In this document: positions 40,289 through 64,000 of the stretch, in pieces
How the letters are laid out: every line of letters starts with the position of its first letter
Numbering within the stretch: position 1 is the first letter of the stretch
Source of the DNA: a virus
Direction: 5' to 3' (one strand)
Length of the DNA: 64,000 nucleotides
Virus genome (UHGV): UHGV-0279745
The notes under the pieces: model-generated
Databases searched by the model: none
What the model was told of the DNA's origin: nothing
Seen by the model: the letters and a program-made list of their open reading frames with translations, nothing else
Program-made: the position numbers and the translations under genes

Positions 40289-40294
40289 CAGTTC

Positions 40295-40338: not shown

Positions 40339-40357
40339 AAACTAATGGAGTTTTAAA

Positions 40358-41191: not shown

Positions 41192-41197
41192 ATAAAA

Positions 41198-41813: not shown

Positions 41814-41829
41814 TATTTCCTCTCAAACA

Positions 41830-44001: not shown

Positions 44002-44007
44002 GTTTTA

Positions 44008-44040
44008 CCTCTAAAAAAACGGGGGTAGTTTCCTACCCCC
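44008..44040 (-). terminator. putative intra-operon terminator/attenuator on minus strand
   Basis: On the minus strand: gggggtag/ctaccccc hairpin followed by T7, located between the giant gene and the 723-aa gene. Confidence 0.45.
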
Positions 44041-44049
44041 CTGTTGTTA

Positions 44050-47000: not shown

Positions 47001-50000
47001 TTCCCCATTTTGCAAGTTTACCTAAGATTGAACCCACTGTGCCTAAAATACTCACGATTGGTCCTACCAACGGCAATCCTTTAAGGAAATCCATTACCCC
47101 ACGTTTACCACCTTTCTTCTCAGCCTCTTTCTTAGCCTTTTCCTCTTCCTTAGAACGCCGACGGCGTCGGAAGAACTGGAAGTAATCGCGTTTTTCATCA
47201 CTGGCAGGCGGCTTATTGCGTTGGCCGAACTTACTGAACATAGTTCTTAACAAACCTTCCGAAGCACCTGCTTTTTCCGCAGAATCACGCATGGTGTTAA
47301 ACCATGACATTTCCTGAAGATTAACCATTCGGTTCAGGCGTTCCAGTAAAGCTGACCCAACGCTACGGGCTTTCTGTTTCCCTTTATTAATCACACGTCC
47401 AGCGCTATCCGTTACGGTGTCTAAGTCTTCTTTTGCCGCATCGATGATACGTGTTTTAGACACCTTGCCTCTTGCGTAGATGTGCTGACGATAAAACTCA
47501 GCAACATCGTCATCGCGTCCTGCTAAACGACTCTCCATTCGATAACGTGTGCCGATATCGTAACGTGGGTCTCGGAAAGTATCGACCATATCGCTTGCAC
47601 GGCCACGGAAACGATCAAACCAACCACGTGCGGCACCGCCCCAACGAGAAAGACGACCACCTACCGCACTGCGATAACGGGACATTCTGTCACGCATCCG
47701 ACCACGCCAATCCCGGAACCCCTGAAAATGTTCACGGAACCCATCACGTATGTCTTTAGCACGTTGGAATAATCCTTTAACTGAGCTGGCTCCCGTATTC
47801 CGTTCCATCTGTTCTGTCCAGGTATCATCTTCTGGTTCACCTGGCAATCTCCGGTTAAGGAGTTTGTAGATACGGATTAAGATGTGGTTAGTTTTACGGC
47901 CGTTCGACCATGAGAACACACTAAACCCACCACCAGAACCCCCTTCCTTACGGTTCTGCCACCAACGTGTCAGAGGGTTATCAGAAGCCAACTCTTTGAG
48001 CTTCTCAAATCCGCGTTTTGCATTGTTCCACAAACGTGCTGGCATTCCCGTTACACGGGAAATCATGCTTTGTAAACGGGTTTTCTCTGCACCCTCTGGA
48101 ACCTCATTTAACCACTCGCGTGCTTTCTCGAACAACGAAGCCGCTTTAGGCGAAATGAAACCCAGAAGTTTCTTCGGTAAAGTCACAGCTTTGTTTACCG
48201 CCGTTCCTGCTTTCCCAGAAATGTACTGGAAAAGCGCTTGAACTTTACCACCTTTGTAGAAACGCAGTTTACCTGCGGCAGCCAAATCAGCAGCAGCTAA
48301 GATTAAATTACCCGCTTCATCGACGATGTCACGTCCCAGTTTAATATCGTCGAGAGTTTTAAGTTGAATCAGCTTCTCAGTTTTCGGGTCAGCCTGGTAA
48401 TATTCCCCAGCTTCTAAACGACTTCCTTGTAATACGACGTTGCCACGTTCATCGTAGATGTCGCGAACGCCTAAAACACCTTTACCGAAAGCTACGGCAG
48501 AATTCCAACCCGTCGATAATGTACCGGTTACTAACCCTTTCAGTCGGCTAAATACGCCGGGACCTTCGGAGGAACCGCCTGAGAATTTCCCACGAATAAA
48601 ACCACCTAATGCTTGTAGGCGATCTTTCCCACGTAGGAACAGATTCTTACCAAACCGTCCTACACCAGAACCGGTATCCCAAAGCACTCCAGCCCAGCGA
48701 CGTAACAAACCTGTCTCGCCTAGTACAATACGTTTGCGCTTACGACGACGTTTACGGCCCGATTCACTCGAACTTTCAGGTTCGTCGCCGTCATCACGAC
48801 TACCGCCTAAACTGGCTAGAAGAATACCTTCCTCATCCATGTTCTTAACGTGTTTGAGGATATCTTGCACGGTGCTAGATTCAGGCTGTTTACGTACGGC
48901 ATCAATCAATCGATCGAACTGTTGTTCCAGCCCGGCGTTCGTATCTGGACGGCTGCTTAAGAGCTCAACAAAGTTGGTAGATTTCTCTCCATAAAGTACC
49001 GCAGCGAGTTGACGGGCGCTTAAACCACGACCGCGACCACCTTTTCCACCACCACGTACGTTGGACAGTTCTTTGTCTTCAAAGCTCGGCTCTGCTCCTG
49101 CACCCATCCGACGCAAGTAATCACCCAACGCAGAACCATTTTGCAGCTTACGTTGAATCTCTTGCTCACGGGTTAACGAACGGCCAGAACGGGTCTTACC
49201 CATCGACAGGTCGTTAAATAGCGTATAGGGATCGTTAATGTCCTTATCGACTTCGAAAATGTCGTTCTTCGCATCGTATTTAAAAATACCGGAATCGCGA
49301 AGTGCGTTCTCGCCGTAAATCACAGACGCAGCATCAACCGTGTCTTGACGTGCACGAATCGTTGACTGAATAGCGGCTATTTTGTTTGAAATCGCATTAC
49401 TCAGTTCATGGTGACCGCCAACCAGTTCCGCAGAACGGGCTTCTAAAACACCCTGAATCGCTTCCACAGCGTTTGCGTTCATGTAACGATACATGTGCAT
49501 CGGGTCTTTCAATAAAGACCCTACATCGAACGCTTTCCCTTCCGAGGCACGAGACTCGATGTAGTCCGCTAACGCCTGACGTGTTTTCCTATCGAGCGTT
49601 TTATCTTTATCGATAAAGTCGACAGTGTCGTTGATGTACGTCTGTAAACGTTTGCGCTGATCGTCATTAGCAACGGCCTTACGTACACGATTACCAATAA
49701 CTTTGCGATCAACCATACCGCGCGTGGTCAGGTCGTATACCTGATCGTGGTGTTCGCCATACCCACGACGAATAGATTTGTTAATCTCGGACAGTAACGT
49801 CGGAATAACTTCGGTGATACTAAGGTAAGCTTTACGATCGAATTTCGCTGCGGCAGAAAGAGATTCCGCAGAGCGATCGTCTAATGCTAAGGTTTCGCGA
49901 CGTAGCGGGTTAACTAGCCCCAATTCGTGCATTAGTCGAAACAGATCAGCTAACGGACCGCTTGTTTCTCCCGCTATTGCCGAGTTAGAAATAGACGACA

Positions 50001-51174
50001 AATTTCCAAAGCCATACTTCGCCAACTGTAGGCGTTTCATGACTTCTGGGTTTTTCTCTAACTCGCCACGGGTCCAGTTCTGAAGACGCTCGATCTGGGG
50101 TTGTAAGAGACGTTTTGCTAACCAACCACCTGCAAAACCTGCCGCTTTATTACGCGAGTTTGTGTTACGACGGTCAGGAGACAACGATGAGCTGTCCGAC
50201 ATGTCAAAGTCATCTTCCTGAGCCATCCCTAGAACTTGTTCTAGAATCCCACGACCATCACTAAAGATGTTCGAGATTTTCTTCTTCGCGTTTTCGCGAA
50301 TCTGACCAATGAAATTATCTGCGTAGTGTAAGGGGTTCATCCACTCCGCAGCTTTACGTTTTACATTAGCCCAACGAATTTCAGAAAACTCTTCCTTCGC
50401 GTAGTCGGGTAGTGCCGTGTTCTTAACGATGGCTTCTAATGCCGGGGTGTTGCGTGCAAACTCGTCTTGTTTGAGTTTCGCAATATCCTGCAAAGCAAAC
50501 AATGTCCGATATTGCAGCTCTAACTGCTTACGCTGAACATTCAACAACACGCCACGACTTAAGCTAGTCGTTAAGTTGACGTCTTTTGCAATACCGATTA
50601 CGGTCTGGAACAGCGCGTCGGACTTCATGTCCTTAATCGTGTCGCGCAAGCGGTCTTCAACCATCCCCTCTTGCGCCTCACGTTGCTGGTCCGCTGTTTG
50701 CGGTGCACCTGAGAACACGCTGTCCAGCTCACGATCCATCATCGCTTGTTTAGGATCGTAATTCCCATAGTCGATTTGATCGTTACGTGCCCACTTGTCG
50801 ATTTTCCGTGTTACGGATTCCGGTAAATACCGTTTCAGTGTTGGGCCTAACTGTCTCGCTTGCATCTTAACGACGCGAGACGTCTTTTCAATCTCGTCTT
50901 TCGTATGGGCCAGAATGTCTTGACCTGCGGCTTTAACGTTTTGATAGCCTTCGTAGGCTTCTGCCGCAGGTTTAGGCATCCCTTTTAAAATAACCTGATC
51001 ACGTTTGTTTTCGGGCCAGATAGTCGACAACGCCGACTTACGGGCAGCACGAAATGTGTCCATGACCGGGTTACGCGATTGGTCTTGTTGACGAGGGGGC
51101 TCATCAAAATCGTCCCAGTCGTCCATGTTATCAAGATCGATTTCATCGAAATCATCTTTACCTTTTTTAGCCAT
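44050..51174 (-). CDS. giant virion-type protein (2374 aa) with transmembrane segments and C-terminal lytic transglycosylase (SLT) domain
   Basis: Uninterrupted 7.1-kb ORF; SLT motif GMAQAESGLRYG...GLFQF encoded about 44830..45160; Gly/Ala-rich hydrophobic helices about 46800..47090; acidic N-terminus. Confidence 0.8.
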   Translation of the reverse strand: MAKKGKDDFDEIDLDNMDDWDDFDEPPRQQDQSRNPVMDTFRAARKSALSTIWPENKRDQVILKGMPKPAAEAYEGYQNVKAAGQDILAHTKDEIEKTSRVVKMQARQLGPTLKRYLPESVTRKIDKWARNDQIDYGNYDPKQAMMDRELDSVFSGAPQTADQQREAQEGMVEDRLRDTIKDMKSDALFQTVIGIAKDVNLTTSLSRGVLLNVQRKQLELQYRTLFALQDIAKLKQDEFARNTPALEAIVKNTALPDYAKEEFSEIRWANVKRKAAEWMNPLHYADNFIGQIRENAKKKISNIFSDGRGILEQVLGMAQEDDFDMSDSSSLSPDRRNTNSRNKAAGFAGGWLAKRLLQPQIERLQNWTRGELEKNPEVMKRLQLAKYGFGNLSSISNSAIAGETSGPLADLFRLMHELGLVNPLRRETLALDDRSAESLSAAAKFDRKAYLSITEVIPTLLSEINKSIRRGYGEHHDQVYDLTTRGMVDRKVIGNRVRKAVANDDQRKRLQTYINDTVDFIDKDKTLDRKTRQALADYIESRASEGKAFDVGSLLKDPMHMYRYMNANAVEAIQGVLEARSAELVGGHHELSNAISNKIAAIQSTIRARQDTVDAASVIYGENALRDSGIFKYDAKNDIFEVDKDINDPYTLFNDLSMGKTRSGRSLTREQEIQRKLQNGSALGDYLRRMGAGAEPSFEDKELSNVRGGGKGGRGRGLSARQLAAVLYGEKSTNFVELLSSRPDTNAGLEQQFDRLIDAVRKQPESSTVQDILKHVKNMDEEGILLASLGGSRDDGDEPESSSESGRKRRRKRKRIVLGETGLLRRWAGVLWDTGSGVGRFGKNLFLRGKDRLQALGGFIRGKFSGGSSEGPGVFSRLKGLVTGTLSTGWNSAVAFGKGVLGVRDIYDERGNVVLQGSRLEAGEYYQADPKTEKLIQLKTLDDIKLGRDIVDEAGNLILAAADLAAAGKLRFYKGGKVQALFQYISGKAGTAVNKAVTLPKKLLGFISPKAASLFEKAREWLNEVPEGAEKTRLQSMISRVTGMPARLWNNAKRGFEKLKELASDNPLTRWWQNRKEGGSGGGFSVFSWSNGRKTNHILIRIYKLLNRRLPGEPEDDTWTEQMERNTGASSVKGLFQRAKDIRDGFREHFQGFRDWRGRMRDRMSRYRSAVGGRLSRWGGAARGWFDRFRGRASDMVDTFRDPRYDIGTRYRMESRLAGRDDDVAEFYRQHIYARGKVSKTRIIDAAKEDLDTVTDSAGRVINKGKQKARSVGSALLERLNRMVNLQEMSWFNTMRDSAEKAGASEGLLRTMFSKFGQRNKPPASDEKRDYFQFFRRRRRSKEEEKAKKEAEKKGGKRGVMDFLKGLPLVGPIVSILGTVGSILGKLAKWGIFKPVGFAGKALWNVGKFAVTRLAVPAVSAVATAASAVVTAVGWPIIGLVAAGAGLTWFYYKTKDRVNAQYLDNMRLAQYGFRDHDEWSSDDGAKARYLEDNLKPYISYTENGQAQLRGLSGDDVKKLAEGFGTNVEDKGEMLAFSAFMLQRFVPIYLRWITALKSMDNDIALADVGNPAKVSKADMLNIFNKMKMSKDAPAFRALEDPRKVNQGWFSKAWDFVTFTPAEFLSGEEVVEAQERVLRSINMRRDEKRKDVNATGSVAEGHKVASVAESTQALAQADAERNKEVAKVEGWEDGTEQVQVQVDWRSLPKETDLRDLESVRLKAYGAVSITQTTRNLYTLLERQVLQDTDVKSCTYKGDWKRAIAVIAPDAIGGPKEDRYKNWFYNRFLPVFMTYVVGVKRYVPAADPMDLRVTGGFLYEIALMMRGAYNLKGGIRQSVWEVPFNPLGGDANTDAGSVATELENLKELSKEADLAVRKTLRATPSAGFRVNWQRKDRATQMFLTDDEKDQPPRQQMNTSSSYRDLLQPAANDGGNYGTPNDLAGAYGQMGAKNYAAFSTGNFGVKLGEMQDGDYKTLAAKYPISTLGDGLKPNLNAVAALIIDVAKMMGVPPALALGMAQAESGLRYGIKAKGSSAAGLFQFINGTWSEQMKAYARRYGIPQTDQYDPWANALLGVRHIRDNIEKARKDLGGIDPPGAAVYLYHFLGQGGGKKFLQEWKRDPNGPSSRGASADQIAANSTIFYKNGKLRSLDEVLSIMGGKIGAVGTNAIAGNQASVKDLTTGVTPMPSSPAIAAGAANDPSITGPADNLPAANEANRDTALADKGAMGADDIKAATGGGPAVPSPGGDVTPSDASVVVDTVGQNARADGLAEEDVAKVKEGARQQMEKSVRPAPTVTSDAQTGSTVNSGDPISVQQLAVAKESAGYLKEIVTILRQRPQAMQNGPANPASTAPGSASRNVSITQPAPQLDVSRKSA

Positions 51175-51203
51175 AACGTTTAATCCGTATCAGGAGATTT
51201 AGC

Positions 51204-52823
51204 GTGAATAAACTTAATTGGGTTGACTTTTATCTGCTCAATGTAAACAAGTCTCTTGTGTCGCGATTACGACCCGTCACGACCACGGATACTTTCCAGG
51301 GGTTAACAAAAAACTTTCACCCCGAAGGTCTTTACTCTACAGAGATATTTGGACTCACGGGGAGTGAAGCGCGAGACTCTACTTTCTCTTATATCGATAT
51401 TAAACTCGATATCATTTCGCCGACGGTGTGTTTGGCGTTATTCCAACTCAAACAACTCTACGAAGAAATTTGTTCTGGAAAACGCTACGCAACGTGGAGC
51501 GAAAAAGAAAAAGATTTCGAACCGGCCTTGCCGGGAGACCCAGGCGCAGATACCGGTTTTAACTTCTTCCTCAGTCACTATAACGATTTAAAACCTAAGC
51601 GTAACGAGTCCCTACAACGTGACGAAACCGTGGATTTCTTTTTGAAATTCCGTCCCGTTAGTCTTAGTCGATACGTTCTCGTGTTACCCGCGGGTTTACG
51701 CGATTTAGTAATTCGACAAGATGGTAGAGAACAGGAAGAAGAAATCGGCGGGATGTATCGTCGGTTGGTATCACTCGCCAGGGCGATCCCTGACCGAGCA
51801 ACCCGTGTTGAATTAACTAACCCCGTACGCTGGAAGCTGCAACAAACCTTCAACGATATCTGGATGTATTTCTTTAACATCCAAGACGGTAAAGGGGGTT
51901 TCCAACGTCGTAAAGTGACGTCTCGTAAATTAATGAACGGGACACGTAACGTACTGTCCTCATTCTCGACGGGGTCTAAGTGCATGGGTCGTGAAGACGC
52001 TATTCGTCCCACCGACACCAAAATTGGTTTATACCAGGGCTTAAAAGCGTTACTCCCCGTTGCGCAATACCAGATACGTGAACGTTACCTCGGTAACATC
52101 CGTGCTGGTGACGGCAACCTTTACGGCGTAAACACCAAAACCCTTAAACGTGAATTCTTGGAAGTAGGTGGTCGTGTATACGACACATTCACCACCGACG
52201 ATGGGATTGAATCCTTAATCAACCGAATGGAAGCTCGCGAGCTTCGCCATCAGCCGATTATGTTGGACGACACCCACTACGTTGCGTTGGTTTACCAAGA
52301 CACCAAACATTTTAAGGTGTTCTACGATATTGAAGAACTTCCTAAAACGTTTGACCGAAAATTCGTCCACGGTATGACGCTCGTCGAATTGCTTTATTTG
52401 TCGGGCTACGAGCTTTGGAACGATTATTTCGGTTTCGTTACACGTTATCCCGTTACAGGCCGAGGCTCGACGTATTCATCGACCATAAGATTGGAGACCA
52501 CCACATCATCTTTATACTTAAAAGAACTGGAAGATGACTGGGAAACTGAAAAACCCCGAGGGGCTATCAGCTACCCTGACCGGTCGGTTCCTACCTTCGT
52601 TGAGTCGATGGCACCACACCCTTCACGCTTAGGTGGCTTAGGGGGTGACTACGACGGCGATACCGGGTCGTTTAACGCGCCTATGTCCCAGGAAGCACTC
52701 GAGGAAAACCGGAATTGGATACACTCGAAAAACTACTGGTTCGATTCTGATGGGAACTTTAAAATCAATCCTATCAACAACGTGATTAAACGTGCAACGC
52801 AAGCGTTATTAAAGAACCCATAA
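51204..52823 (+). CDS. multisubunit RNA polymerase beta-prime-like subunit (N-terminal catalytic fragment), putative
   Basis: GTG start with CAGGAG RBS; aa 482-486 DYDGD (nt 52647..52661) followed by NAPMSQEALEE, matching the beta-prime NADFDGD...PL..EA..EA active-site region. Confidence 0.5.
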   Translation: MNKLNWVDFYLLNVNKSLVSRLRPVTTTDTFQGLTKNFHPEGLYSTEIFGLTGSEARDSTFSYIDIKLDIISPTVCLALFQLKQLYEEICSGKRYATWSEKEKDFEPALPGDPGADTGFNFFLSHYNDLKPKRNESLQRDETVDFFLKFRPVSLSRYVLVLPAGLRDLVIRQDGREQEEEIGGMYRRLVSLARAIPDRATRVELTNPVRWKLQQTFNDIWMYFFNIQDGKGGFQRRKVTSRKLMNGTRNVLSSFSTGSKCMGREDAIRPTDTKIGLYQGLKALLPVAQYQIRERYLGNIRAGDGNLYGVNTKTLKREFLEVGGRVYDTFTTDDGIESLINRMEARELRHQPIMLDDTHYVALVYQDTKHFKVFYDIEELPKTFDRKFVHGMTLVELLYLSGYELWNDYFGFVTRYPVTGRGSTYSSTIRLETTTSSLYLKELEDDWETEKPRGAISYPDRSVPTFVESMAPHPSRLGGLGGDYDGDTGSFNAPMSQEALEENRNWIHSKNYWFDSDGNFKINPINNVIKRATQALLKNP

Positions 52824-52832
52824 GGCTAAGCA

Positions 52833-55800
52833 ATGCTGCTCATTAAACAGTTTAACCAACGCTTCTCGGTGCGTAAAACTGACGAGTTTGGTAATCCGAG
52901 GATTATCCCGCTCGAGAAGCTACAGATACCACGTGGTTCTGTACTCCATGTCATTGATCTCGACCAGGTGGTATTAGCGCCACCTGCAACACTCGAGATT
53001 ATTCAACCGTTAGAAAAACCTGCACAGGTTCGTCACCACTTTAAATTACCGGAAGACGGTATTAGCGGTCATCCGCGCAACAAACCTGTTCAGGGGCAAG
53101 AACGTGCTATCTTTGCTTACCACCGTGCAAACCGCCCGATGCGTCGTCTTACCTCAGACGATCTGGTTCGCAAAGACTTAAAAGTTCTCCTGGTCGAGAA
53201 CTACACACCGATGCTATCGCACTACTACTATCCTGACACCCAGTTAGCCTGGTACGATAGACTGCGTAACATCCAACTGTTGATGATTAACCAGTTCAAA
53301 TACGACACGCAAGAATACATGCGTCAGAACTATTTCGTTATTGAACTGGGTTCGACTCTACCTTCGTTCCAGAAGTTTCAAACAACCTATAACGACCGCG
53401 TTAAGAGCAAGATTGAGAAGTTCCAGGACTTCAACTTGCTGTGGTTATTGGAGTTGTTTGCTTGGGCTTATGGAAAACAATCCGATTCCCTATTCTCGGG
53501 AATGGATTTAACTCAGCTGTCACGAATGAACTTTATCTTCACCCACAACACGGGCTTTACGTCCATGAACATGGGTGTTGTAGAGAAAATGCGTAAGTCG
53601 TCCGGCGGTCGTTTAAGTGATGACCAAATGGCCAGGATGTTCTACCGTACGCTGGTGCGTGTAATGACACAAGCACCGTCTAACGCGTACGAAGCTGAAT
53701 TCCTAACGCCTGAAGGCGACGAGCGTGTTTTCCTTAAAGACGTCGAAGAAGAAACCGTTGATGTTGTCGACGATGACGATGTTGTTAATGACGCTGTGGT
53801 GGAATCCGATAACACCTTCGATGAAAAAGAAGACGTTGTTATTGAAGAACCGAAGGAAGACGTCAAACCGACGACCATCGTCGTCGAGAAAGTCATTCCA
53901 CATGACGAGATTATTAAACAGGAAGCACAACGCTTAGCTGAAGCGGGCCGCTTAAGTTCTAAAGCATATCAGTTCCTGTCAGAATCGTCTAAACGTTTCG
54001 TTCAGCTACCTAACCCGTATAACCCGAAAGAAACCTACGGGGAAGCACTGACTGTTCACGAGAAAGATATTGTCGTTAAAGCCGAACCGAAAAAAGTTCA
54101 GCGGCTTGTTACCGATGAAGGGTGGGCAGAGAACGTCACCGACCAGATGGTGAAACAATACAACCAGACCATGATGACCAAAGACGTACTGGCGGCGGTC
54201 GCCAGTTCACAACGTTTGGGTCTGGCGGTTCACAACCACACGGTGGAAAAAGAAGTTTCTGTTACAGGAACTATCGAGCACCACACTTTACGTGTTCAGC
54301 CAGTCGGTGGTGAGCCAACAACCGTTCGCTTCTCTATCCCAGGCTTGACCGAGGACGGTACTTGGGTCGCTAATGGTGTCGAATACACCATGCGTCGCCA
54401 ACGTGTGGACTTACCGATTCGTAAAGTTGCACCGGATACTGTCGCACTGACTACCGCTTACGGTAAAAACTTTGTCCGTCGTAGTGATAAGGTCGCGAAC
54501 GATTACGGTCGTTGGTTAACCAACGCGATTATCACACGCGCTGTTGACCCAACAAACACCGAAGTCACCGATGCACGTTTAGCAAATGTGTTCGATCCTA
54601 CGCAACATCTGCCTCGTCAGTATACGGAGATTGCACGCCGTATTGCCAGCTTTAATGCGAACGGCTATATGTGGAACTTCGACTACAAAGAAGCCGTTAA
54701 CTTCTTTAACGACGAGCAACTCAGAGACGCCGATGCTGCCAAACTTCTGCCAGTGGCGAAACGTCCGCGTAGTGAAACAATCCTGGCAATGGATGACAAA
54801 TCCATGCTTTACGGTGTGAACGGAAACAAAGTTGAACCGGTGGGGACTATCGCAGAGGTACTGGGCTTTAATAACCAGAAAGTGCCTCGCGAAATGACCG
54901 AGCTGTCTTTGATGGGTAAATCTTTGTCGCTTGGTTTTATCTTCTCGTTCTATCTTGGACTCCAGGGAATGTTGAAACATTTCGGTATCCAGTACGAGTT
55001 GGTTCCTACAGGACAGCGTGTTGATAAGAATGCCTACGACAGTATTATTCGACTACAAGACTGTAAACTTTTAGTTACTTGCGATAACGATCAGCAGAGG
55101 ATGATTCTGCATGGTTTGGATCGCTATCTCAAACACCTGGTTGCTTATACCGAATCAGAAGCAGACCGCGAAGACATTTACCTGAACTTATTACGTGAAG
55201 CAGATGGCCTAACGCCACGGTACATCAACGAGCTGAAACAGATGCGGTCCGCGTTTGTTGACGACATGCACGCACGTATCCTCAGGAAAATGGGTGAGCC
55301 GGAAACCTTTATTGGCTTGCTGGAACGTTCTAACGAACTGTTACAAACCGACCACTCTTTACCAGAGATTAACGGCGATGAAATGATGTTCTTAGGAAAT
55401 CAGAGGATTGCCTACCACATCTATACTGCGATGGTCAGAGCGATGCGTAACTACAATAACGCACCGGGCAGTAACCGTAAGTTCGAACTGACGCAAGATA
55501 TGGTTTGGGGTGCTATTAACTCCGACCCGTCGGTACTTTTGGCACCAGGCGCTAACCCTATCCAGTCAATTAAAGAAAAAGACGTTATTACGATGGGGGG
55601 TACAGGTGGTCGTAATCGTAAAACGATGGTCTACCACACACGTGAGTTCCAACCCAGTGATATCGGGATAGTCTCGGGTAACACCGTAGATAACGGCGAC
55701 GTAGGGATTACTGCTTTCGTCACCAATAACCCACGTTTTGACACCGTTGACGGTACTACGTTTAAGCGTGAAGAGAAAACCCCGAAACCGAGCGATACCC

Positions 55801-56999
55801 TTTCGTTTATTGACGGGTTAGTACCCGATACGTTAATGGACGATGCAAAACGTCAAAACTTCGTTGGGATTCAGTTAGGTTCTGCCACCAGTTGTAATGG
55901 GGCAACCACAACCCCGTATCGTACTGAACAGGAGAAATTCGTCGCTCACCGTACTTCGGTGAAACATGCACGCGTTATTGATAAAGCAGGTAAGATTACT
56001 GGTCTGTCGAAAGACCACATTGAAATTACGTACGAAGATGGAAGTAAAGAAGCCTTTCCTCTAGGGCGCTGGTTCGGCCCCCACGAAGGTACCTTCTATC
56101 CGCACACCTTGGTAACACGCTGGAAAGCCGGTGACAAGCTCCCGGCCGGAGCAGTGATTACGTACAACGAGCAACACTTTGAACCTGATATTTACGATCC
56201 TACTCAGGTTTCCTGGAAAAACGGGGTGCTGGCCACCGTTGCTTTATTAGAAGCTGAAGAAGTTATCGAAGACTCCAACGCAATTTCTGAACGGTTCGCG
56301 AAGAAAATGGTGGGGCAGGTAACAAAGCTGAAAGAAGTGACGATTAACAGCAACCAGATGCTTTTGGAAATCGTGAATGAGGGCGACCACGTAGACGTCG
56401 ATACAATCCTATGCACGTTTACTGACGACTTGACGGGCGATATGAGTGCCTTTAGTCAGGAAGCAGCCGCAACGTTGCAAAGTTTAAGTTCGTACGCACC
56501 TCGTGCAGGGGTACGTGGTATCGTGGATAAAATCGAAGTGGTGTATCACGGTGAAACCGAAGACATGACACCAAGCCTTGCTGAACTGGTGCGTAAATAC
56601 GACAGAATTCGTCGTAAAGCCGCACTGGCAGTCGGACGTGGTGATCCGGTTTCAGGCAGTGTAAACGGCGACTACCGTGTCGAAGGTGTACCCTTGGCCT
56701 TTAACTCACTTTGTGTTCGATTCTTTATTACACACGACGTTGAGATGGCCGCTGCGGATAAGATGGTTATTGCTAACCAGCTAAAAACCACCGTACAAGA
56801 AGTCATGTACGGCGACAACAAAACAGAGGATGGCGATGACCTGGACGTGTTGTTCGGTCGCGATTCCGTCGATGCGCGTATCGTAGGTTCAATCCAACGT
56901 ATCGGTACCGCGAATGCTGTAGGTGAACAAGCCGGGATTCTCATCGGGCGTATACTCGATGGGGAGGCTGTGCCTGATTTACCCGCGACACTTAAATAA
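52833..56999 (+). CDS. large hypothetical protein (1388 aa), possibly a further RNAP subunit or virion protein
   Basis: ORF track; immediately downstream of the beta-prime-like gene; no motif recognised with confidence. Confidence 0.7.
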   Translation: MLLIKQFNQRFSVRKTDEFGNPRIIPLEKLQIPRGSVLHVIDLDQVVLAPPATLEIIQPLEKPAQVRHHFKLPEDGISGHPRNKPVQGQERAIFAYHRANRPMRRLTSDDLVRKDLKVLLVENYTPMLSHYYYPDTQLAWYDRLRNIQLLMINQFKYDTQEYMRQNYFVIELGSTLPSFQKFQTTYNDRVKSKIEKFQDFNLLWLLELFAWAYGKQSDSLFSGMDLTQLSRMNFIFTHNTGFTSMNMGVVEKMRKSSGGRLSDDQMARMFYRTLVRVMTQAPSNAYEAEFLTPEGDERVFLKDVEEETVDVVDDDDVVNDAVVESDNTFDEKEDVVIEEPKEDVKPTTIVVEKVIPHDEIIKQEAQRLAEAGRLSSKAYQFLSESSKRFVQLPNPYNPKETYGEALTVHEKDIVVKAEPKKVQRLVTDEGWAENVTDQMVKQYNQTMMTKDVLAAVASSQRLGLAVHNHTVEKEVSVTGTIEHHTLRVQPVGGEPTTVRFSIPGLTEDGTWVANGVEYTMRRQRVDLPIRKVAPDTVALTTAYGKNFVRRSDKVANDYGRWLTNAIITRAVDPTNTEVTDARLANVFDPTQHLPRQYTEIARRIASFNANGYMWNFDYKEAVNFFNDEQLRDADAAKLLPVAKRPRSETILAMDDKSMLYGVNGNKVEPVGTIAEVLGFNNQKVPREMTELSLMGKSLSLGFIFSFYLGLQGMLKHFGIQYELVPTGQRVDKNAYDSIIRLQDCKLLVTCDNDQQRMILHGLDRYLKHLVAYTESEADREDIYLNLLREADGLTPRYINELKQMRSAFVDDMHARILRKMGEPETFIGLLERSNELLQTDHSLPEINGDEMMFLGNQRIAYHIYTAMVRAMRNYNNAPGSNRKFELTQDMVWGAINSDPSVLLAPGANPIQSIKEKDVITMGGTGGRNRKTMVYHTREFQPSDIGIVSGNTVDNGDVGITAFVTNNPRFDTVDGTTFKREEKTPKPSDTLSFIDGLVPDTLMDDAKRQNFVGIQLGSATSCNGATTTPYRTEQEKFVAHRTSVKHARVIDKAGKITGLSKDHIEITYEDGSKEAFPLGRWFGPHEGTFYPHTLVTRWKAGDKLPAGAVITYNEQHFEPDIYDPTQVSWKNGVLATVALLEAEEVIEDSNAISERFAKKMVGQVTKLKEVTINSNQMLLEIVNEGDHVDVDTILCTFTDDLTGDMSAFSQEAAATLQSLSSYAPRAGVRGIVDKIEVVYHGETEDMTPSLAELVRKYDRIRRKAALAVGRGDPVSGSVNGDYRVEGVPLAFNSLCVRFFITHDVEMAAADKMVIANQLKTTVQEVMYGDNKTEDGDDLDVLFGRDSVDARIVGSIQRIGTANAVGEQAGILIGRILDGEAVPDLPATLK

Positions 57000-57002
57000 T
57001 CT

Positions 57003-57030
57003 CGAGGGGTGGGTCGCTCCCACCCTTGTA
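57003..57030 (+). terminator. hairpin, possible weak terminator
   Basis: ggggtggg-tcgct-cccaccc but poor T-run. Confidence 0.35.
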
Positions 57031-57046
57031 AACTCCGGAGAAGAGA

Positions 57047-57340
57047 ATGTCTATTCTAGATAAAATCAAACAGCGGCACGGTATTCCGACTGGGAAAAAT
57101 ATTACCCAGCAAAACGTGGAGGGATACAGTCCCATTCAACGTACCAACTACGTGTCTTTAGGTAATACTGTCGAATTAGCAACGGAGATTGTGCATGGTC
57201 TGATTCGCGGTAACTCAGGAATGTCTGACCGTATCGGTGATCAGAAACTGCTGAAACGTGATATCGCAGATCTGGTGGGCGCGCGTTTGTACGCGATGCT
57301 TCAGGCGAACATCAGCACGAATAAAGAGGTTAAACAATGA
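57047..57340 (+). CDS. hypothetical protein
   Basis: ORF track; RBS ccggagaagaga. Confidence 0.55.
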   Translation: MSILDKIKQRHGIPTGKNITQQNVEGYSPIQRTNYVSLGNTVELATEIVHGLIRGNSGMSDRIGDQKLLKRDIADLVGARLYAMLQANISTNKEVKQ

Positions 57341-58797
57341 TCAGTTTATACTCGCTGAATGCGGTTACTAACGCCATGAAACTGTGCAAACAGCATAATG
57401 TTCAGCTTGGCACAGACGTTGACTCTCCGGTTGATTTGCTCAACCGCGCGGTCGACCCTACCCGCGTTTTCGATACCACAATCACCGACGAACAGTTCTT
57501 CCAGGAACTGCCCGCGATTACGCAGCTTAAACGTCCTGTAGACGGTACGGCGGAAGCTTCGATTATTCATGACGGTGCTGTTGAAGTTGAAGCACTGCGT
57601 GTTGACGATCATGAAACCACGCTATTCGAACTGAAGAACATGGCCATTCAGCGTTGCAACGGGATGCTGGATTTTGCCCGTAACGTTGTTCAACCATTTG
57701 TGCAGCTGGTTATCCAAAATAACACGATTGAAGATGTCAAACCGTTGGTTGAAGACTGGAACCTGATTCCGGTAGGTATCGATCCGTGTGTGGATTCCCC
57801 AGTTGTCCAGGCGCTGATTCAAGAAATCGCCAACCCGATGGGCAACGGTACGACTTACGACCCGATCAAGTTCGATGTACCGGCCGACATCGAGATTCCG
57901 GAAACAGGTGTAAAAGCGTATGATGAACTGGTGCGTAAATTACTGAATGACCTGAATCTCAGCATGTACGATGCAGCAAAACTGCTGCTGGCAGGTAACT
58001 ACACCGTACCTGTTGCAGATAAAGCACCGGAGATGGTAAAAGAACGTGTTCTGGTACTGCTGTTGTCTTCGTTCTTCATTGAACGTCCGTGGCCTGACTC
58101 AGGTGTTGACGCCCTGAAATGGAAAGCGGAAATGGGCCGTGCCTATTACACGTCTATCGGTTGGGTATACGGTTTCGAAAAAGCGGTGGCTAACCGTGTC
58201 GCCACAGGTAACATCGTTTACTCTTACGATACCAACGAGAAAAACGTCTATATCTGTCAGGAAACGATGGACGACTACCTGGAAAAAGGCGGTATCGTTG
58301 AAGCCCTGTTGGGTGCCATTTACCTGATGGACGAAGGCGACTATAACGTTTCCGCACGTGTCGCGTCTCTGCTGGAAAACCAGAAAGCCTACGTTGAAGC
58401 TTACAATCGTCGTGCGATTATCGTTCAGAAACGAAATGAACTCGATTGGGTAAGTCGTAACCGTCAGGCACTGAAAACTGCGTTCTCGATTGCAATCGAC
58501 CAGCTCGACCAGGGCTACCTGACTGTTGGCGAGCTGACGCGCACTCGCGAAGAAGTCAAACAGGTTGTTATGGGGATTTGTGATGATTTCTTTGTCAACG
58601 CAGACGAAGACATTACGTTGTTTATCATCCGGACTGCATGTAACTCCGTATTCTGCGCCTACGAAATTGATCCGCTGATGCGTGCGATTCATACCGCGAT
58701 GATTGAGAACACCGATCCGGCAGAAGCCGCAACCAGTTGGATGATTGACTATGTACTGAACTGGATCGCAGGTTCAGTATTTGTCGATAAACTTTAA
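57337..58797 (+). CDS. hypothetical protein
   Basis: ORF track; ATGA overlap with upstream gene. Confidence 0.65.
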   Translation: MISLYSLNAVTNAMKLCKQHNVQLGTDVDSPVDLLNRAVDPTRVFDTTITDEQFFQELPAITQLKRPVDGTAEASIIHDGAVEVEALRVDDHETTLFELKNMAIQRCNGMLDFARNVVQPFVQLVIQNNTIEDVKPLVEDWNLIPVGIDPCVDSPVVQALIQEIANPMGNGTTYDPIKFDVPADIEIPETGVKAYDELVRKLLNDLNLSMYDAAKLLLAGNYTVPVADKAPEMVKERVLVLLLSSFFIERPWPDSGVDALKWKAEMGRAYYTSIGWVYGFEKAVANRVATGNIVYSYDTNEKNVYICQETMDDYLEKGGIVEALLGAIYLMDEGDYNVSARVASLLENQKAYVEAYNRRAIIVQKRNELDWVSRNRQALKTAFSIAIDQLDQGYLTVGELTRTREEVKQVVMGICDDFFVNADEDITLFIIRTACNSVFCAYEIDPLMRAIHTAMIENTDPAEAATSWMIDYVLNWIAGSVFVDKL

Positions 58798-58815
58798 CGC
58801 GCTTAGGAGGTGATC

Positions 58816-59544
58816 GTGAGTGCGATTGAAACAGCCCGTCGTGACCCTACTAAGGTTCATGCGGACTTGGTAAATAACGGCACGGTCACCACTACCAAAG
58901 GGGGATGTTACATTTACATCCCCGTTGGGTTTGTGGCGAAAGAGTTGGCGGTTATTTCTTCTACGGTAACAATTGTAGGGATCTTTGCGATTTCTACCGA
59001 CCGTAAAACATATGGGGTGTCCAGCGTTACAACGCTTATGGAGATTACCCCAACGGCGTTTGAAGAGATCGACGTCTTTGGTGTTCCTTATTACGAATTT
59101 CGTTTTGATCCCGGTACAGTGGTTTTCCCCAACCGCAATTTACAGGTGTTGTCTCACCCTATTTACAACATTGCGTCGTATATTTACGACTTTGGTAATC
59201 GTCCTTTCTGGTTTACTGCAGCGGATGATGCTGAACTCTTGGCACCTGATAAAGTCAAGAAATGGAACGGTTTTACTGTATTTGCCGATCAGATTACCGC
59301 TGACGTTTACGCAGCACACACACAGCGTAAAGTAGGTGATCCGAGAACGTTCTTCCGTTACACGCTGAAGAAAGATAGCGATCTTAACAACCCTGTGCAG
59401 TTTATTCCATTGCGCAGTGGTTCACTTAACAAAACGTCGAGACTGGCGAAGCTTGCGGACGTGGAACTTAAACGTGGTATTCGTTCTGCGCTACAGGTTG
59501 ACCCGGTGCGTGCCGAACCGCTCGAAGATTTGTTTATGAGGTAA
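58816..59544 (+). CDS. hypothetical protein
   Basis: GTG 58816 with AGGAGG RBS (58810 GTG is too close to the RBS). Confidence 0.55.
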   Translation: MSAIETARRDPTKVHADLVNNGTVTTTKGGCYIYIPVGFVAKELAVISSTVTIVGIFAISTDRKTYGVSSVTTLMEITPTAFEEIDVFGVPYYEFRFDPGTVVFPNRNLQVLSHPIYNIASYIYDFGNRPFWFTAADDAELLAPDKVKKWNGFTVFADQITADVYAAHTQRKVGDPRTFFRYTLKKDSDLNNPVQFIPLRSGSLNKTSRLAKLADVELKRGIRSALQVDPVRAEPLEDLFMR

Positions 59545-59575
59545 TCTTACCTTTTACTTTTACTCGGGGAAAACA

Positions 59576-60379
59576 ATGGACAATTTAACACTGCGTTACA
59601 ACTGCGTAGCGTTAGCCGGTGTTAACGCTCCAGCCACACTGGAGAAAGACGCGGATGGTTATTACCGCGTACTATTGGGTGCTTTGAATATCTTTAACTC
59701 GGAAGGGATTTTTTACGCCTATAACGAGTCTAAGCACGTATTCGAACGCTCGAACATCTTTATGCGTAAAGTGAAAGCAGGGAATCTGTTCGGGGAAGAA
59801 GATCACCCGGCACCAGAACCCGGTATGACCGAAGCGCAATGGATCGATCGCAACGAATGGATTGAGACGAAAAACGTCTGTATGCACATTCGTGAAGTTG
59901 AAGTGATTCCAACCGACCAAACCTGTAACGGGTTACCGGTTATGGAAATCTGGGGCTGGGTTAAGCCGAACCGCGAACGTGGTCCGTACTTAGCAGAAGC
60001 ACTCGAAAACCCACACCAGAACGTGTGTTTCTCTCTGCGTGCAATCGTACGTGAAGGTTATGTAGGTGGTGTGAAAACACGTCGCCTGGATCGCCTGGTA
60101 ACGTTTGACTGGGTTATCGAAGACGGGTTGCAGATTTGTAACAAATACTCTGCGATTCAACGCGGTAGTAAAGTGGCTCAAGAATCCACACGCGTTCTGT
60201 TGGACCGTCGCGTCTCTCTCCAGGCGCTGGAGGACATTCTGCGAAATCCTAACACCACGTCTACCATCGCGACAGAATCTCGTCGTGGTGAAGTTCGTGC
60301 GTTAGCGCAGGAGTACCTGGCCATCGCTAATAAGAAAACTAACCTGCGTGTTATGGGTTTAGGTAACGGGAAGTGGTAA
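59576..60379 (+). CDS. hypothetical protein
   Basis: ORF track. Confidence 0.6.
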   Translation: MDNLTLRYNCVALAGVNAPATLEKDADGYYRVLLGALNIFNSEGIFYAYNESKHVFERSNIFMRKVKAGNLFGEEDHPAPEPGMTEAQWIDRNEWIETKNVCMHIREVEVIPTDQTCNGLPVMEIWGWVKPNRERGPYLAEALENPHQNVCFSLRAIVREGYVGGVKTRRLDRLVTFDWVIEDGLQICNKYSAIQRGSKVAQESTRVLLDRRVSLQALEDILRNPNTTSTIATESRRGEVRALAQEYLAIANKKTNLRVMGLGNGKW

Positions 60380-61018
60380 ATGGCTGATACTATTGAACCT
60401 TCGTTGGTGAAGTGGTTAGAGCAACAACTGCCGCGCACCGCAAAGAAAGTTTCTTTGAAAAAGTTAGATAGCGCCCCGTTGCATATCAGCGATCGAAAGA
60501 TTTCGGTTTTCACGCCTCGGATTCCTTATAGCGTTTACAGAGACGAAGACAAAACGGTACCCCGTATTTGCTGCTCTGTCGATTTAGAACGTTGCCTGCG
60601 TGGTGTCCGTCGCTACTTTACACCTGCGGAAACCGCAACCGCCGTGCCACGTTTTTATCTGTATGGGTTCGACGAACGTGATGTTGTACAGCCCTCGATA
60701 GAACTGTCGGCTGAACCCTACCGCGCTAATGAAGTGTGGATTGTTCCTCACCGCTTATCGAACTGGGAAATTAAACCCAGTTTAGTCGGTGAACTGCGTT
60801 TAGTTCGACTGGCAAACAACGGATACACCCACACGTTAGCAGTAGCGCTTAACCAAGACGTTCGTTTGAATGCTAACCAGCTATTAAAAGGTGGTTCATT
60901 CTACGAACTTACTGTAACGTGTAGTGAACGGGAACCTCAGATTACGATTTCTGATGCAAAAGAAATCTCTCGGGGTATTTTTGACGCTGCGTTAAACGAA
61001 TACACTGTAACTCCATAA
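60380..61018 (+). CDS. hypothetical protein
   Basis: ORF track; abuts upstream stop. Confidence 0.6.
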   Translation: MADTIEPSLVKWLEQQLPRTAKKVSLKKLDSAPLHISDRKISVFTPRIPYSVYRDEDKTVPRICCSVDLERCLRGVRRYFTPAETATAVPRFYLYGFDERDVVQPSIELSAEPYRANEVWIVPHRLSNWEIKPSLVGELRLVRLANNGYTHTLAVALNQDVRLNANQLLKGGSFYELTVTCSEREPQITISDAKEISRGIFDAALNEYTVTP

Positions 61019-61067
61019 TCGCCCAGTTCATGGTCTGCAACCCGAATTTGTCGATTGTGAGGGAAGC

Positions 61068-61367
61068 ATGAAAGTGGTTAACATTGCCATACCTCCGACT
61101 TTGCAAACTTTAACGCCTGAGGAATTGAAAGCACTAACAATCTATGCCGTTCAAGAGCATGCTGGAAAGGAAGTGCTTTCTTCGATACTCGCTGAACGTT
61201 TTGACACCAAACGTAAAGTCAACAACATTGTCGCAGGTATTTCACAACAAGATATCGCGAAATTTTATTGCGATGTGCGTCAAGCCGGTACCGAAATCGA
61301 CTTTACACGTACTTACCTCTTGTTAACTGAACCGTTTCGGTTCATTCTTTCGATTAAGCAGTCCTAA
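61068..61367 (+). CDS. hypothetical protein
   Basis: ORF track. Confidence 0.55.
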   Translation: MKVVNIAIPPTLQTLTPEELKALTIYAVQEHAGKEVLSSILAERFDTKRKVNNIVAGISQQDIAKFYCDVRQAGTEIDFTRTYLLLTEPFRFILSIKQS

Positions 61368-61433
61368 TTTTTTTATTTTACAATTTCTACCGTTATTGTG
61401 TCGGAGGAACTTCTACAAAAAGGATAATCAAAA

Positions 61434-61985
61434 ATGTTCAATTTAGATAGTGACGGCGTGTTCGCGAGTTGGCGTAAATACGTGTTGACCCACCACTTTC
61501 AAGGAATGTCCATACAAGAATTTCATGGAATGCCGGAATTGCACCGCCGTGCACTGGTCCGGGAAATGTATTTAAAGGACCCGGATCTTTTCTATAAACT
61601 AGACCCTATACCCGAGGCTGCAAAAATCCTCGAAACGGTAGAAAGTCTGGGGGAATGCTGGGCGATATTAACGTCGGGTTCGGAAGACCATTTCGATCAC
61701 GACCGTGTTGTTGAGTGTAAAAAATTATTCTTCGAGAAACACTTTGGTGTGCCTGGTCACAAAGTTATCGTAACCACAAGCTCTGCAGAAAAAGCGACTT
61801 ACGCTGATAAGGGGAGATTGTTAGTGGATGACTATGGCCGGAATTGCCGTGAGTGGGTGTTAAAGAACGGGACCGCGATCTATACGCGGACGGATGAGCC
61901 TGACGTTGACGCCATTTGCCGACAACTCAGAACATTCGCAGAAAATCCCTTCGAATACTCAGGTCAGATTTTGTGCGTGCAGTAA
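61434..61985 (+). CDS. HAD-superfamily 5'(3')-deoxyribonucleotidase-like protein (putative)
   Basis: N-terminal FNLDSDGVF matches the HAD motif I (DxDGV) as found in NT5C-type nucleotidases. Confidence 0.45.
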   Translation: MFNLDSDGVFASWRKYVLTHHFQGMSIQEFHGMPELHRRALVREMYLKDPDLFYKLDPIPEAAKILETVESLGECWAILTSGSEDHFDHDRVVECKKLFFEKHFGVPGHKVIVTTSSAEKATYADKGRLLVDDYGRNCREWVLKNGTAIYTRTDEPDVDAICRQLRTFAENPFEYSGQILCVQ

Positions 61986-61992
61986 AACCATT

Positions 61993-62036
61993 CGGCTAGT
62001 CTATTCATCGAATAGACTAGCCCACCTTTATTTTAA
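61993..62036 (+). terminator. intrinsic terminator
   Basis: gctagtctattc-atcg-gaatagactagc 12-bp stem plus T-run. Confidence 0.7.
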
Positions 62037-62055
62037 CCCTATTGAAAATTATCTT

Positions 62056-62077
62056 AGATATATTTTACTTAGGTGAG
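62056..62077 (+). promoter_or_regulatory. candidate early-type phage promoter element, copy 3 (agatatattttacttaggtgag)
   Basis: Same motif and same terminator-promoter-gene arrangement as copy 2. Confidence 0.4.
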
Positions 62078-62128
62078 CGTTGTAGAATTACACGCTATTC
62101 GACTGTTTAACCTAAAGGAGTATTAAGA

Positions 62129-62518
62129 ATGAAAAACGAATTATTTAAAGACCCGTTTGTTGTATTAATGATTTCTACTCGTGCTATCACACGTCAAGAT
62201 GACCTGGAACGATTAATTACAGATGAAACTTATCTGTGCGAGCAACGTGACAAACTACTGAACAAAGAATGTTCTTGTGAAGATATCGGTCCTCTAGTGA
62301 CTATCGTCCATAACCCAGAGTGGCGTAGAAACAACGAATTGTCTGATATCTTGAGTGTTTCGCTTGCAAAACTGGCAATGTTGTTCTCTCTCGATAAAGA
62401 CCTTAAACAATGTCTTACTACGCCAGAGCGCATCAAAATGTTTGAAGGCATTCGGGAATCAGTTAAACAAATTAACGCTATCAAAAGCAATTGGATACTC
62501 TCTAGCGTAGGTAGCTAA
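62129..62518 (+). CDS. hypothetical early protein, dispersed paralog of the 4661 gene
   Basis: RBS cctaaaggagtattaaga; first 44 nt of CDS identical to 4661..4704; protein similar along full length. Confidence 0.7.
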   Translation: MKNELFKDPFVVLMISTRAITRQDDLERLITDETYLCEQRDKLLNKECSCEDIGPLVTIVHNPEWRRNNELSDILSVSLAKLAMLFSLDKDLKQCLTTPERIKMFEGIRESVKQINAIKSNWILSSVGS

Positions 62519-62519
62519 G

Positions 62520-62909
62520 ATGGAATGGCCAAAAGAACTTATCAAAGTCTGTCGTGACCCCTTCACCTTATGGATTCTGTGTAGCTTACGTCGTGATGAC
62601 AGATTCTATACTTTCGTAACAGACCCACAAGCACTTGAGCTCCACGTAAAACGCGTTGAGGCGCATTTAGAGACGTTAAAAGAGGAAAGCAATACCATCG
62701 TACCTAAAGATGCGTTTTTGTGCCGTATGGCGTCTCCTAAGTGGCGTGAAGCGCATCGACTAAAAGCACCTACGCTCCCGGATATGGTGCAAGAGCTTGC
62801 AAGGGTAGTAAGCGCTGACCATATCCTTTATCGAAACATTATCCAAGAACCTGACGATTGGAAAAACCATCGTATTCTGTTGGCACGCTGTCAGTTCACA
62901 TTCTCTTAA
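62520..62909 (+). CDS. hypothetical protein
   Basis: ORF track. Confidence 0.55.
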   Translation: MEWPKELIKVCRDPFTLWILCSLRRDDRFYTFVTDPQALELHVKRVEAHLETLKEESNTIVPKDAFLCRMASPKWREAHRLKAPTLPDMVQELARVVSADHILYRNIIQEPDDWKNHRILLARCQFTFS

Positions 62910-62930
62910 TCGACTTGTAAGGTATTATCA

Positions 62931-63602
62931 ATGGAAGCTACTGAAATTAATAAATTCTGGGAACGTGTACTTAGCCACTTCCGCGATTTCTATCGCTATA
63001 CCGATAGCGCACATCGACTAGACCACATTCTTTCTGTGAAGTCGAACGCTGTTCGTATCGCTTACCTGTTGAACGAAACTCAACACTTAAAGAATGTTCT
63101 GGTTGCTGTGGCAGCGCACGATATTTTCTCCACACCTGCTGACCGTGCCTCCCACCACATCAAAGCATTCAATTACGTGCTTGATTCTGCACCTATTCTC
63201 AGACGTCGCTTTAAACTTACCTCCGACGATGTAACCGAGGTAGCGTATGCAGTATTAGAACATCGGAGTTCCCACAAAGGTGGTTATAATTCCATTGTTT
63301 CTGAAATTGTCGCTGCCGCCGATCGCGGTATCCCTACCGTCGAAGAAGTTAAAAATTACATGCACCGCTCTTACTTATACGCACGTGACCATGGAAAATC
63401 CGTTACCGATTCAAAATTCCATGCAATCAGTCACGTGCAAAATAAGTTCGGTCGTAATGGTAAATCTCGTGTTCCTGATTGGTATAACGCATTGTTTGCG
63501 AAAGAAATCTTGGAACGCCAAGAGTACGTTGAAATGCTCGACTTAGCGTATTTCACCGACGAAATCATCACTGGCTTAGAAAGCCGTCTTCAACAACAGT
63601 AA
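62931..63602 (+). CDS. hypothetical protein, possible HD-domain phosphohydrolase
   Basis: ORF track; H...HD pattern (AHRLDH ... VAAHDIF); weak. Confidence 0.5.
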   Translation: MEATEINKFWERVLSHFRDFYRYTDSAHRLDHILSVKSNAVRIAYLLNETQHLKNVLVAVAAHDIFSTPADRASHHIKAFNYVLDSAPILRRRFKLTSDDVTEVAYAVLEHRSSHKGGYNSIVSEIVAAADRGIPTVEEVKNYMHRSYLYARDHGKSVTDSKFHAISHVQNKFGRNGKSRVPDWYNALFAKEILERQEYVEMLDLAYFTDEIITGLESRLQQQ

Positions 63603-63621
63603 ACCTTAAGGAATAAATCAA

Positions 63622-64000
63622 ATGGCACAAGTAATGTCTACTAAAGAACTGGCTGCAATGATCGACGCGCTGGAAACTCCGGCAATGACTCTGGACGAAA
63701 GCGCGGTACTTAACGCAGACCCGTTAATCAAAATCTACGAAGAATCACTTCCGGTCATCAAAGTGAACGACACCGATTATCGTCTAACGCTACAGGATGC
63801 GGATGCGGTTCGCCAACACGATGCGAACTTCCTGGAAGTCTACGGTAAGGTTGCATCAGAACTTATCGTTGAGAAAGCGAAAGCAGACGACGAACTGGTC
63901 GCACTGGACCTTACCACGAATATTGGTAATGCGTCGTTCTCTACGGTGTTCTCACGTCCAACTGGGGAAACAGTAGGGGCGTCTGAATGGGCAGCTTCTA
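63622..64000 (+). CDS. hypothetical protein, 5' part only (runs off window end)
   Basis: ATG with AAGGAA RBS; open frame to the end of the window; not in ORF track because truncated. Confidence 0.5.
   Translation, partial: MAQVMSTKELAAMIDALETPAMTLDESAVLNADPLIKIYEESLPVIKVNDTDYRLTLQDADAVRQHDANFLEVYGKVASELIVEKAKADDELVALDLTTNIGNASFSTVFSRPTGETVGASEWAAS

Follow-up and report, generated by a model that had tools for sequence, protein, structure and literature searches.

The stretch of DNA considered here, hereafter the window, comprises 64,000 nucleotides of the virus genome UHGV-0279745, and its plus strand carries at 52833..56999 a 4.2-kb open reading frame (ORF) that encodes a protein of 1388 residues. 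An earlier note on this DNA had placed the ORF 9 nt after a β′-like gene and in the same orientation, and the ORF list and codon positions agree: the upstream gene ends with TAA at 52821-52823 and the ATG lies at 52833, leaving a gap of exactly 9 nt. The existence of at least 35 full-length or near-full-length homologues (29-94% identity) argues that this is not a chance ORF, and its ATG start is supported by the homologues, which open with the same MLLIKQFN... residues. We are highly confident that the gene encodes βN, the larger N-terminal part of a split RpoB-like subunit of a jumbo-phage virion RNA polymerase (vRNAP). The gene and the features of its product are as follows:

52833..56999, plus strand: gene for βN of the vRNAP (ATG start, 1388 residues plus stop; ORF list), the counterpart of SPN3US gp241 and phiKZ gp178
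52833..53714, plus strand: N-terminal domain, residues 1-294, a phage-specific globular α/β domain and candidate capsid-targeting, propeptide-like module
53715..53867, plus strand: acidic linker predicted to be disordered, residues 295-345 (from the predicted local distance difference test score (pLDDT), the charge profile and lower conservation)
53868..56996, plus strand: RpoB-like core, residues 346-1388 (from an AlphaFold (AF2) model searched with Foldseek and from hidden Markov model (HMM) segments; the alignment spans Thermus β about 117-916)
55545..55733, plus strand: fork-loop-2/rifampicin-pocket region, residues 905-967 (PGANPIQSIKEKDVITMGGTGGRN...), aligning to Thermus β 396-457
55839..55844, plus strand: Asp pair D1003-D1004 (LMDDAKRQ), aligned to Thermus EHDDANR and the equivalent of bacterial HDDANR
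56268..56273, plus strand: E1146-D1147 (EDSNAISER), invariant and resembling bacterial β EDSxxxSER
56757..56786, plus strand: double-psi β-barrel residues D1309-K1310...K1318 (ADKMVIANQLK), HMM-aligned to Thermus GDK838...K846 with its two active-site lysines

Over its full length the protein matches PHROG 3148, 'RNA polymerase beta subunit' (E = 0, 1910 bits). A family profile built from 18 homologues sharing 20-94% identity was run with hmmsearch against the PDB, and all 39 matches obtained were RpoB chains, the best being the β subunit of Thermus thermophilus (1iw7_C, E = 1.9e-11). The profile and the Thermus chain align in four collinear segments that follow one another in the same order in both proteins: residues 505-528 with Thermus 117-140 (the 'INGxERVIVSQ' element); residues 907-967 with 396-457 (fork loop 2 and the rifampicin region, a weak but collinear match); residues 983-1093 with 531-639, in which LMDDAKRQ falls on EHDDANRA; and residues 1296-1387 with 822-916 (the barrel). 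As the alignment ends near residue 916 of the 1119 in Thermus β, the last roughly 200 residues of a β subunit are absent from the protein.

An AlphaFold model covering residues 346-1388 (pLDDT 79.9; predicted template modelling score, pTM, 0.78) gave 423 matches at E <= 1e-3 in a Foldseek search of the PDB, led by 8w8o_C (E = 4.3e-25, probability 1.0); the best 50 of these all come from bacterial RNA polymerase (RNAP) complexes, and nearly all are chain C or I. No phage RNAP chain occurs among the 39 PDB matches of the profile or among the best 50 of the 423 Foldseek matches. The structural alignments to bacterial β show 12-14% identity and a template modelling (TM) score of about 0.46 over about 1100 columns; the earlier note had remarked that phage RNAP subunits are reported to be highly diverged. 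By profile and model together, residues 346-1388, which make up three quarters of the protein, are unambiguously RpoB-like in their predicted fold. Comparison with RpoB profiles and structure prediction, two of the checks that had been proposed, hence agree, and an RpoB-like fold was found in place of a capsid, tail or portal homology lacking RNAP domains. The earlier proposal of an additional RNAP subunit stands as regards an RNAP subunit, whereas 'additional' does not hold, the protein being the β (RpoB-like) half minus its last roughly 200 residues.

Six residues of the predicted catalytic motifs, D1003, E1146, D1147, D1309, K1310 and K1318, are invariant across the 18 homologues, down to 20% identity; R1007 is also invariant, as are N908, P909, T920, G922, G925 and R937 of the fork-loop-2 region. 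The pair E1146-D1147 is presumed to be equivalent to E. coli E813/D814, by resemblance to the E. coli sequence rather than by a tool alignment. Likewise, we take Thermus D396, H406 and S411 to be residues that contact rifampicin. In the weak alignment of this region (55545..55610) the corresponding positions read P905, E915 and T920, the latter two being (nearly) invariant in the βN family, which suggests that the rifampicin pocket is absent from βN. Within the limits of a weak alignment and of presumed contacts, these residues are consistent with a rifampicin-insensitive infection as in phiKZ. Infection by phiKZ itself is insensitive to rifampicin (PMC5105663). In all, the protein resembles bacterial RpoB in its predicted fold and in the order of its motifs, the barrel lysines included, and differs from it in the low sequence identity, in an extra N-terminal module and in having its last roughly 200 residues on a separate polypeptide.

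The relatives of the protein point to a polymerase carried in the virion. This region of the window shares about 75% DNA identity with Erwinia phage phiEaH2 and with SPN3US-type Salmonella phages, whose two RNAP genes both carry the annotation RNA polymerase beta subunit. The protein is 82% identical to phiEaH2 gp161 ('RNA polymerase beta subunit'). To a 1401-residue SPN3US-type protein it is 77% identical along its entire length (1400 columns); we infer this relative to be gp241, since the two are equally long and it occurs in SPN3US-type phages. SPN3US gp241 (1,401 aa) has been assigned as the vRNAP βN and is essential, and mass spectrometry shows it to be abundant in heads (PMC5105663, PMC5694885). 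Particles of a gp241 amber mutant are without all five vRNAP pieces, namely gp42, gp218, gp240, gp241 and gp244, and knockout of gp218 or gp244 causes the same loss, which indicates that assembly of the complex precedes its packaging (PMC5105663, PMC5694885). The earlier note had offered a virion protein as the alternative to an RNAP subunit, and this too is supported, in that the close relative taken as gp241 is packaged in the head. Both alternatives are true and do not exclude each other, because the protein is a β homologue whose SPN3US-type relative is head-packaged; it is an RNAP subunit and, by orthology, probably also a virion protein. In common with SPN3US gp241 it has an N-terminal domain, an acidic linker and an RpoB core, as well as the same neighbours and the same split of β, with a 222-residue βC encoded elsewhere. 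Unlike SPN3US, the phage belongs to a separate lineage, with best annotated genome matches of about 75% nucleotide identity, and its genome measures about 223 kb as against about 240 kb for SPN3US-type genomes.

More distantly, the protein is about 35% identical over residues 330-1368 to its homologues in phiKZ-like phages, one of which annotates the homologue as a virion-associated β/β′-like protein. The core is homologous to that of phiKZ gp178 and of the 201phi2-1 vRNAP β, and in phiKZ the gene adjoins that for the DFDGD-bearing β′N, gp180; in these phages, however, the N-terminal domain is too diverged to be detected by tblastn. Like SPN3US gp241, phiKZ gp178 is packaged in virions and is essential for progeny assembly (PMC10612078, PMC11620839), and cutting its gene stops the production of viable virions (PMC11620839). 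The phiKZ vRNAP subunits co-immunoprecipitate, are present at about 10 copies per virion and enter the cell with the DNA (PMC10612078), and phiKZ-type phages transcribe their early genes without host RNAP (PMC10612078, PMC5105663). By tblastn, βN homologues occur in 313 phage records, with hosts that include Pseudomonas, Erwinia, Salmonella, Vibrio, Serratia, Aeromonas, Klebsiella, Ralstonia, Bacillus and Staphylococcus, and in 310 of the 313 there is a single matching place.

The core is preceded by an extension of roughly 350 residues that is absent from cellular β and is of the size (about 300-400 residues) by which a vRNAP βN is recognised. In a model of residues 1-350 (pLDDT 83.6, pTM 0.82), residues 1-294 form one confident globular domain; pLDDT falls below 50 over residues 295-327 and 341-350, and the net charge over residues 301-350 is -16. 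The domain is conserved to about the same degree as the catalytic core. A Foldseek search of BFVD with it gave 9 matches at E <= 1e-3, all to large phage proteins, of which three are named, one as an RNAP beta subunit, one as RNAP subunit alpha and one as an uncharacterised protein; a solved structural relative was looked for and none was found. Among 1.84 billion cluster representatives, a profile of the domain retrieved 1004 at E <= 1e-3, and in the best 150 of these carriers the match begins within the first 40 residues. To judge from these sequence and model searches, the domain is confined to the N-terminus of these phage β proteins. A proposal in the literature is that the N-terminal region targets the complex into the prohead (PMC5105663, PMC5694885); in 201phi2-1 the prohead protease removes its counterpart at TFE-275, in the manner of a propeptide, and SPN3US keeps it on the mature enzyme (PMC5694885). 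The domain is most likely a capsid-targeting, propeptide-like module, in line with this published hypothesis, which fits our data. Processing by the prohead protease at AYE-287 or TPE-294 was considered and dropped, as SPN3US gp241, with a similar YEDDEF..TPEGDE, is reported to be unprocessed (PMC5694885).

The remaining pieces of the proposed enzyme and the associated features lie as follows:

51204..52823, plus strand: β′N gene (GTG start, 539 residues; SPN3US gp240-like; PHROG 2986)
52647..52661, plus strand: catalytic D482-Y-D484-G-D486 of β′N (GGDYDGD, residues 480-486, aligned to NADFDGD of plastid β′)
52821..52825, plus strand: Shine-Dalgarno-like TAAGG, read from the sequence, overlapping the stop of the upstream gene and lying 7 nt before the βN ATG
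30006..30674, plus strand: βC candidate, 222 residues, SPN3US gp218-like (PHROG 3233, 'RNA polymerase beta subunit', E = 6e-93)
58810..59544, plus strand: β′C candidate, 244 residues, SPN3US gp244-like (PHROG 2926, 'virion structural protein', E = 5e-91)
59576..60379, directly after the 244-residue gene: prohead protease gene, 267 residues (PHROG 3014, head maturation protease)

The description of the upstream gene as β′-like is confirmed by its match to PHROG 2986, 'RNA polymerase beta subunit' (E = 7e-234), and by the alignment of its GGDYDGD with plastid NADFDGD, in which all three Mg-binding aspartates are retained. The alignment to plastid β′ in the PDB is collinear yet weak overall (E = 0.4), and two more weakly aligned stretches fall where we presume the LPPxLRP and GK-GRFR motifs of β′ to lie. 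In Serratia phage 2050HW and Pseudomonas phage HPP-Temi, too, the gene upstream of βN bears the annotation 'RNA polymerase beta subunit'. The 222-residue ORF would be expected to supply the C-terminal roughly 200 β residues that the 1388-residue protein lacks, and by eye its TGQVVGPSKASGxSFPE...TLxEFL can be likened to what we take to be the E. coli β region containing TLQEML. SPN3US gp218, the βC piece, has the same length (PMC5105663). The published candidate for the fifth vRNAP subunit, β′C, is gp244 (PMC5105663, PMC5694885). A gp42-like β′M was not among the window ORFs scanned.

Downstream of βN the genes encode, in order, proteins of 97, 486, 244 and 267 residues, an arrangement that parallels SPN3US gp242-245. 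The wider order in the window (tail fiber, β′N, βN, two small genes, virion protein and prohead protease) equals that of phiEaH2 gp159-gp165, so that the βN gene sits inside a conserved head-gene block ending with the prohead protease. At the other end of this array, at 44050..51174 on the minus strand, lies the gene for a 2374-residue protein that matches phrog_3201 'tail fiber protein' and contains a lytic transglycosylase (SLT) domain at residues 1998-2085 (Pfam E = 2e-7). It presumably resembles the giant phiKZ gp181, which we take to be a cell-wall-degrading virion protein also encoded beside vRNAP genes.

The evidence from the fold alone does not separate the β of a virion polymerase from that of the second, non-virion RNAP (nvRNAP), which would serve the middle and late genes and is not packaged, and phiKZ-related phages do carry two paralogous sets of split β and β′ genes (PMC5105663). 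The nvRNAP β pieces of phiKZ and AR9 are, like βN, split and highly diverged phage RpoB homologues independent of host factors, and differ from it in forming a paralogous set that is kept out of virions. We take these pieces to be phiKZ gp71-73 and gp123, presumably with solved structures. It is nevertheless very improbable that the gene in the window belongs to that set, given the full-length identity of its product to a protein with the length of head-packaged gp241, the presence of the long N-terminal domain typical of vRNAP βN, the position in the head-gene block, and the single tblastn place in nearly all records, which implies that the paralogues are too distant to be confused. Equally hard to credit is a degenerate pseudo-polymerase, that is, an RpoB-derived structural or ejection protein of the virion that no longer catalyses transcription. 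Extreme divergence from cellular β (12-14% identity in the structural alignments and no Pfam match) and packaging into the head in related phages would suit such a protein, but throughout the family there is no variation in the active-site lysines, the Asp pair or the ED motif, and the adjacent β′N retains its Mg-binding aspartates; moreover, phiKZ-type early transcription proceeds without host RNAP (PMC10612078, PMC5105663), and gp241 amber mutants are lethal (PMC5105663). Least probable of all is a new accessory RNAP subunit, σ-, α- or gp68-like, rather than a β. In its favour, the first 294 residues of the protein have no known fold relative, and no σ- or α-like vRNAP subunit was found in the scans of the window or is named in the SPN3US papers (PMC5105663, PMC5694885). 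Against this, the fold match refutes it for residues 346-1388, three quarters of the protein being unambiguously RpoB-like, and the N-terminal domain is fused to β instead of forming a subunit of its own.

Several points nonetheless weigh against the assignment to a vRNAP βN. A Pfam scan of the protein and four neighbours returned no RNAP domain, and for the protein itself no family even at E <= 1; a single-sequence phmmer search of the PDB yielded only noise (a laccase, E about 0.2), so that a profile was needed. The RpoB assignment accordingly depends on the profile and fold evidence, which is strong though without Pfam support; the missing Pfam match is attributable to divergence and does not contradict that evidence. 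The earlier note's remark that no canonical motifs could be recognised by eye is matched by these blank searches, although the motifs do exist in diverged form, as the profile alignment and the invariant residues make plain. For the βC candidate, neither a family profile nor the single sequence retrieved anything relevant from the PDB or gave a link to RpoB, and as our own PDB profile search was empty its assignment rests on the PHROG match and the literature. Location in the virion, formation of a complex and early transcription are properties transferred from orthologues (77% identity for the SPN3US type, about 35% for the phiKZ type). Finally, the role given to the N-terminal domain is a hypothesis, and as the domain is retained in SPN3US it may do more than targeting.

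If the protein is the βN of a vRNAP, the enzyme would consist of five pieces, namely βN, β′N with its Mg-binding DYDGD, βC, the gp244-like β′C and a β′M encoded outside the window, and would contain neither an α nor a σ subunit. The complex would assemble in the cytoplasm of the infected cell and enter the prohead as one unit (in phiKZ a virion holds roughly ten copies), with residues 1-294, tied to the core by the acidic disordered linker, bringing the whole complex into the head. The polymerase would then be ejected with the DNA and would transcribe the early phage genes independently of host RNAP and in a rifampicin-insensitive manner.

The βN gene is a site of intron insertion in relatives of this phage. 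By length, the best 150 proteins bearing the N-terminal domain form three classes, and the shorter proteins stop abruptly near profile position 530 (about 55 proteins) or near 1006 (about 50). The break near 1006 falls just after LMDD, 2-3 residues downstream of the Asp pair, and right after this pair PhiPA3 has a group I intron that comes with the gp210 homing endonuclease (PMC11620839). The βN gene is annotated as two pieces in Serratia phage 2050HW and Pseudomonas phage HPP-Temi, and between the pieces we found full-length group I introns (Rfam RF00028; L002 4543-4826 and L003 4733-5018) scoring 82.6 bits in 2050HW and 70.5 bits in HPP-Temi, the former accompanied by an endonuclease gene. 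The break at about 530 (RRQRVDLPI|RK) could mark either another intron site or a genuine split of the gene. Whereas some relatives in the phiKZ group have a group I intron after the Asp pair, with or without a homing endonuclease, the gene in the window has none: its ORF is uninterrupted, and the whole window (1..64000) contains zero Rfam families at the gathering threshold, and also zero tRNA genes. It represents an intron-free allele at a known hot spot for insertion of group I introns and homing endonucleases. Elsewhere in the window, residues 10-468 of a 498-residue UvsX-like recombinase (28191..29687, plus strand) match only profile positions 43-351, and a 344-residue thymidylate synthase (38245..39279, plus strand) matches profile positions 33-308; each exceeds its matched profile span, which suggests insertions.

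The placement of TAAGG fits a coupled expression of the β′N and βN genes, for which it would have a putative function as ribosome-binding signal; an AGGAG Shine-Dalgarno sequence lies 7 nt ahead of the β′N GTG. The start codons of the β′N gene and of the divergent 2374-residue gene are 29 nt apart (51175..51203), and any promoters there must therefore fall inside coding sequence. Over the 8.8 kb of 50900..59700, matches to σ70-type promoters are depleted (2 versus 10.2 +/- 2.9 expected), and terminator-like sites around the operon show no enrichment (8 versus 9.6 expected). The depletion is consistent with transcription by phage polymerases that use other types of promoter, not by host RNAP.

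The family is already known, having been recognised since the proteome work on 201phi2-1 and phiKZ, and its SPN3US member has been genetically dissected. The exact sequence is also already public, mislabelled as 'subunit alpha' or 'hypothetical protein': it is present in GenBank as DAO89063.1, 'MAG TPA: DNA-directed RNA polymerase subunit alpha [Caudoviricetes sp.]', with contigs reaching 223,523 bp, and belongs to a cluster of 717 sequences at 90% identity, in which the named ones among the 40 members examined are 'hypothetical protein'. Most of these named members are on contigs of about 222-226 kb; nearly all come from Salmonella enterica isolate assemblies, with serovars including Chester, Enteritidis, Ridge, Weltevreden and Agona, and one from Enterobacter ludwigii. 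It seems that this jumbo phage of about 223 kb, of the SPN3US/phiEaH2 group, often accompanies sequenced isolates un-annotated, perhaps through pseudolysogeny or a carrier state.

As a consequence of this analysis, four of the five vRNAP genes, those present in the window, can now be annotated correctly. The N-terminal domain of βN, a well-folded, family-specific module with no structural precedent, is the part of the enzyme most worth experimental attention, and it bears on the broader question of how a multisubunit polymerase reaches the capsid, survives packaging and passes through the tail.

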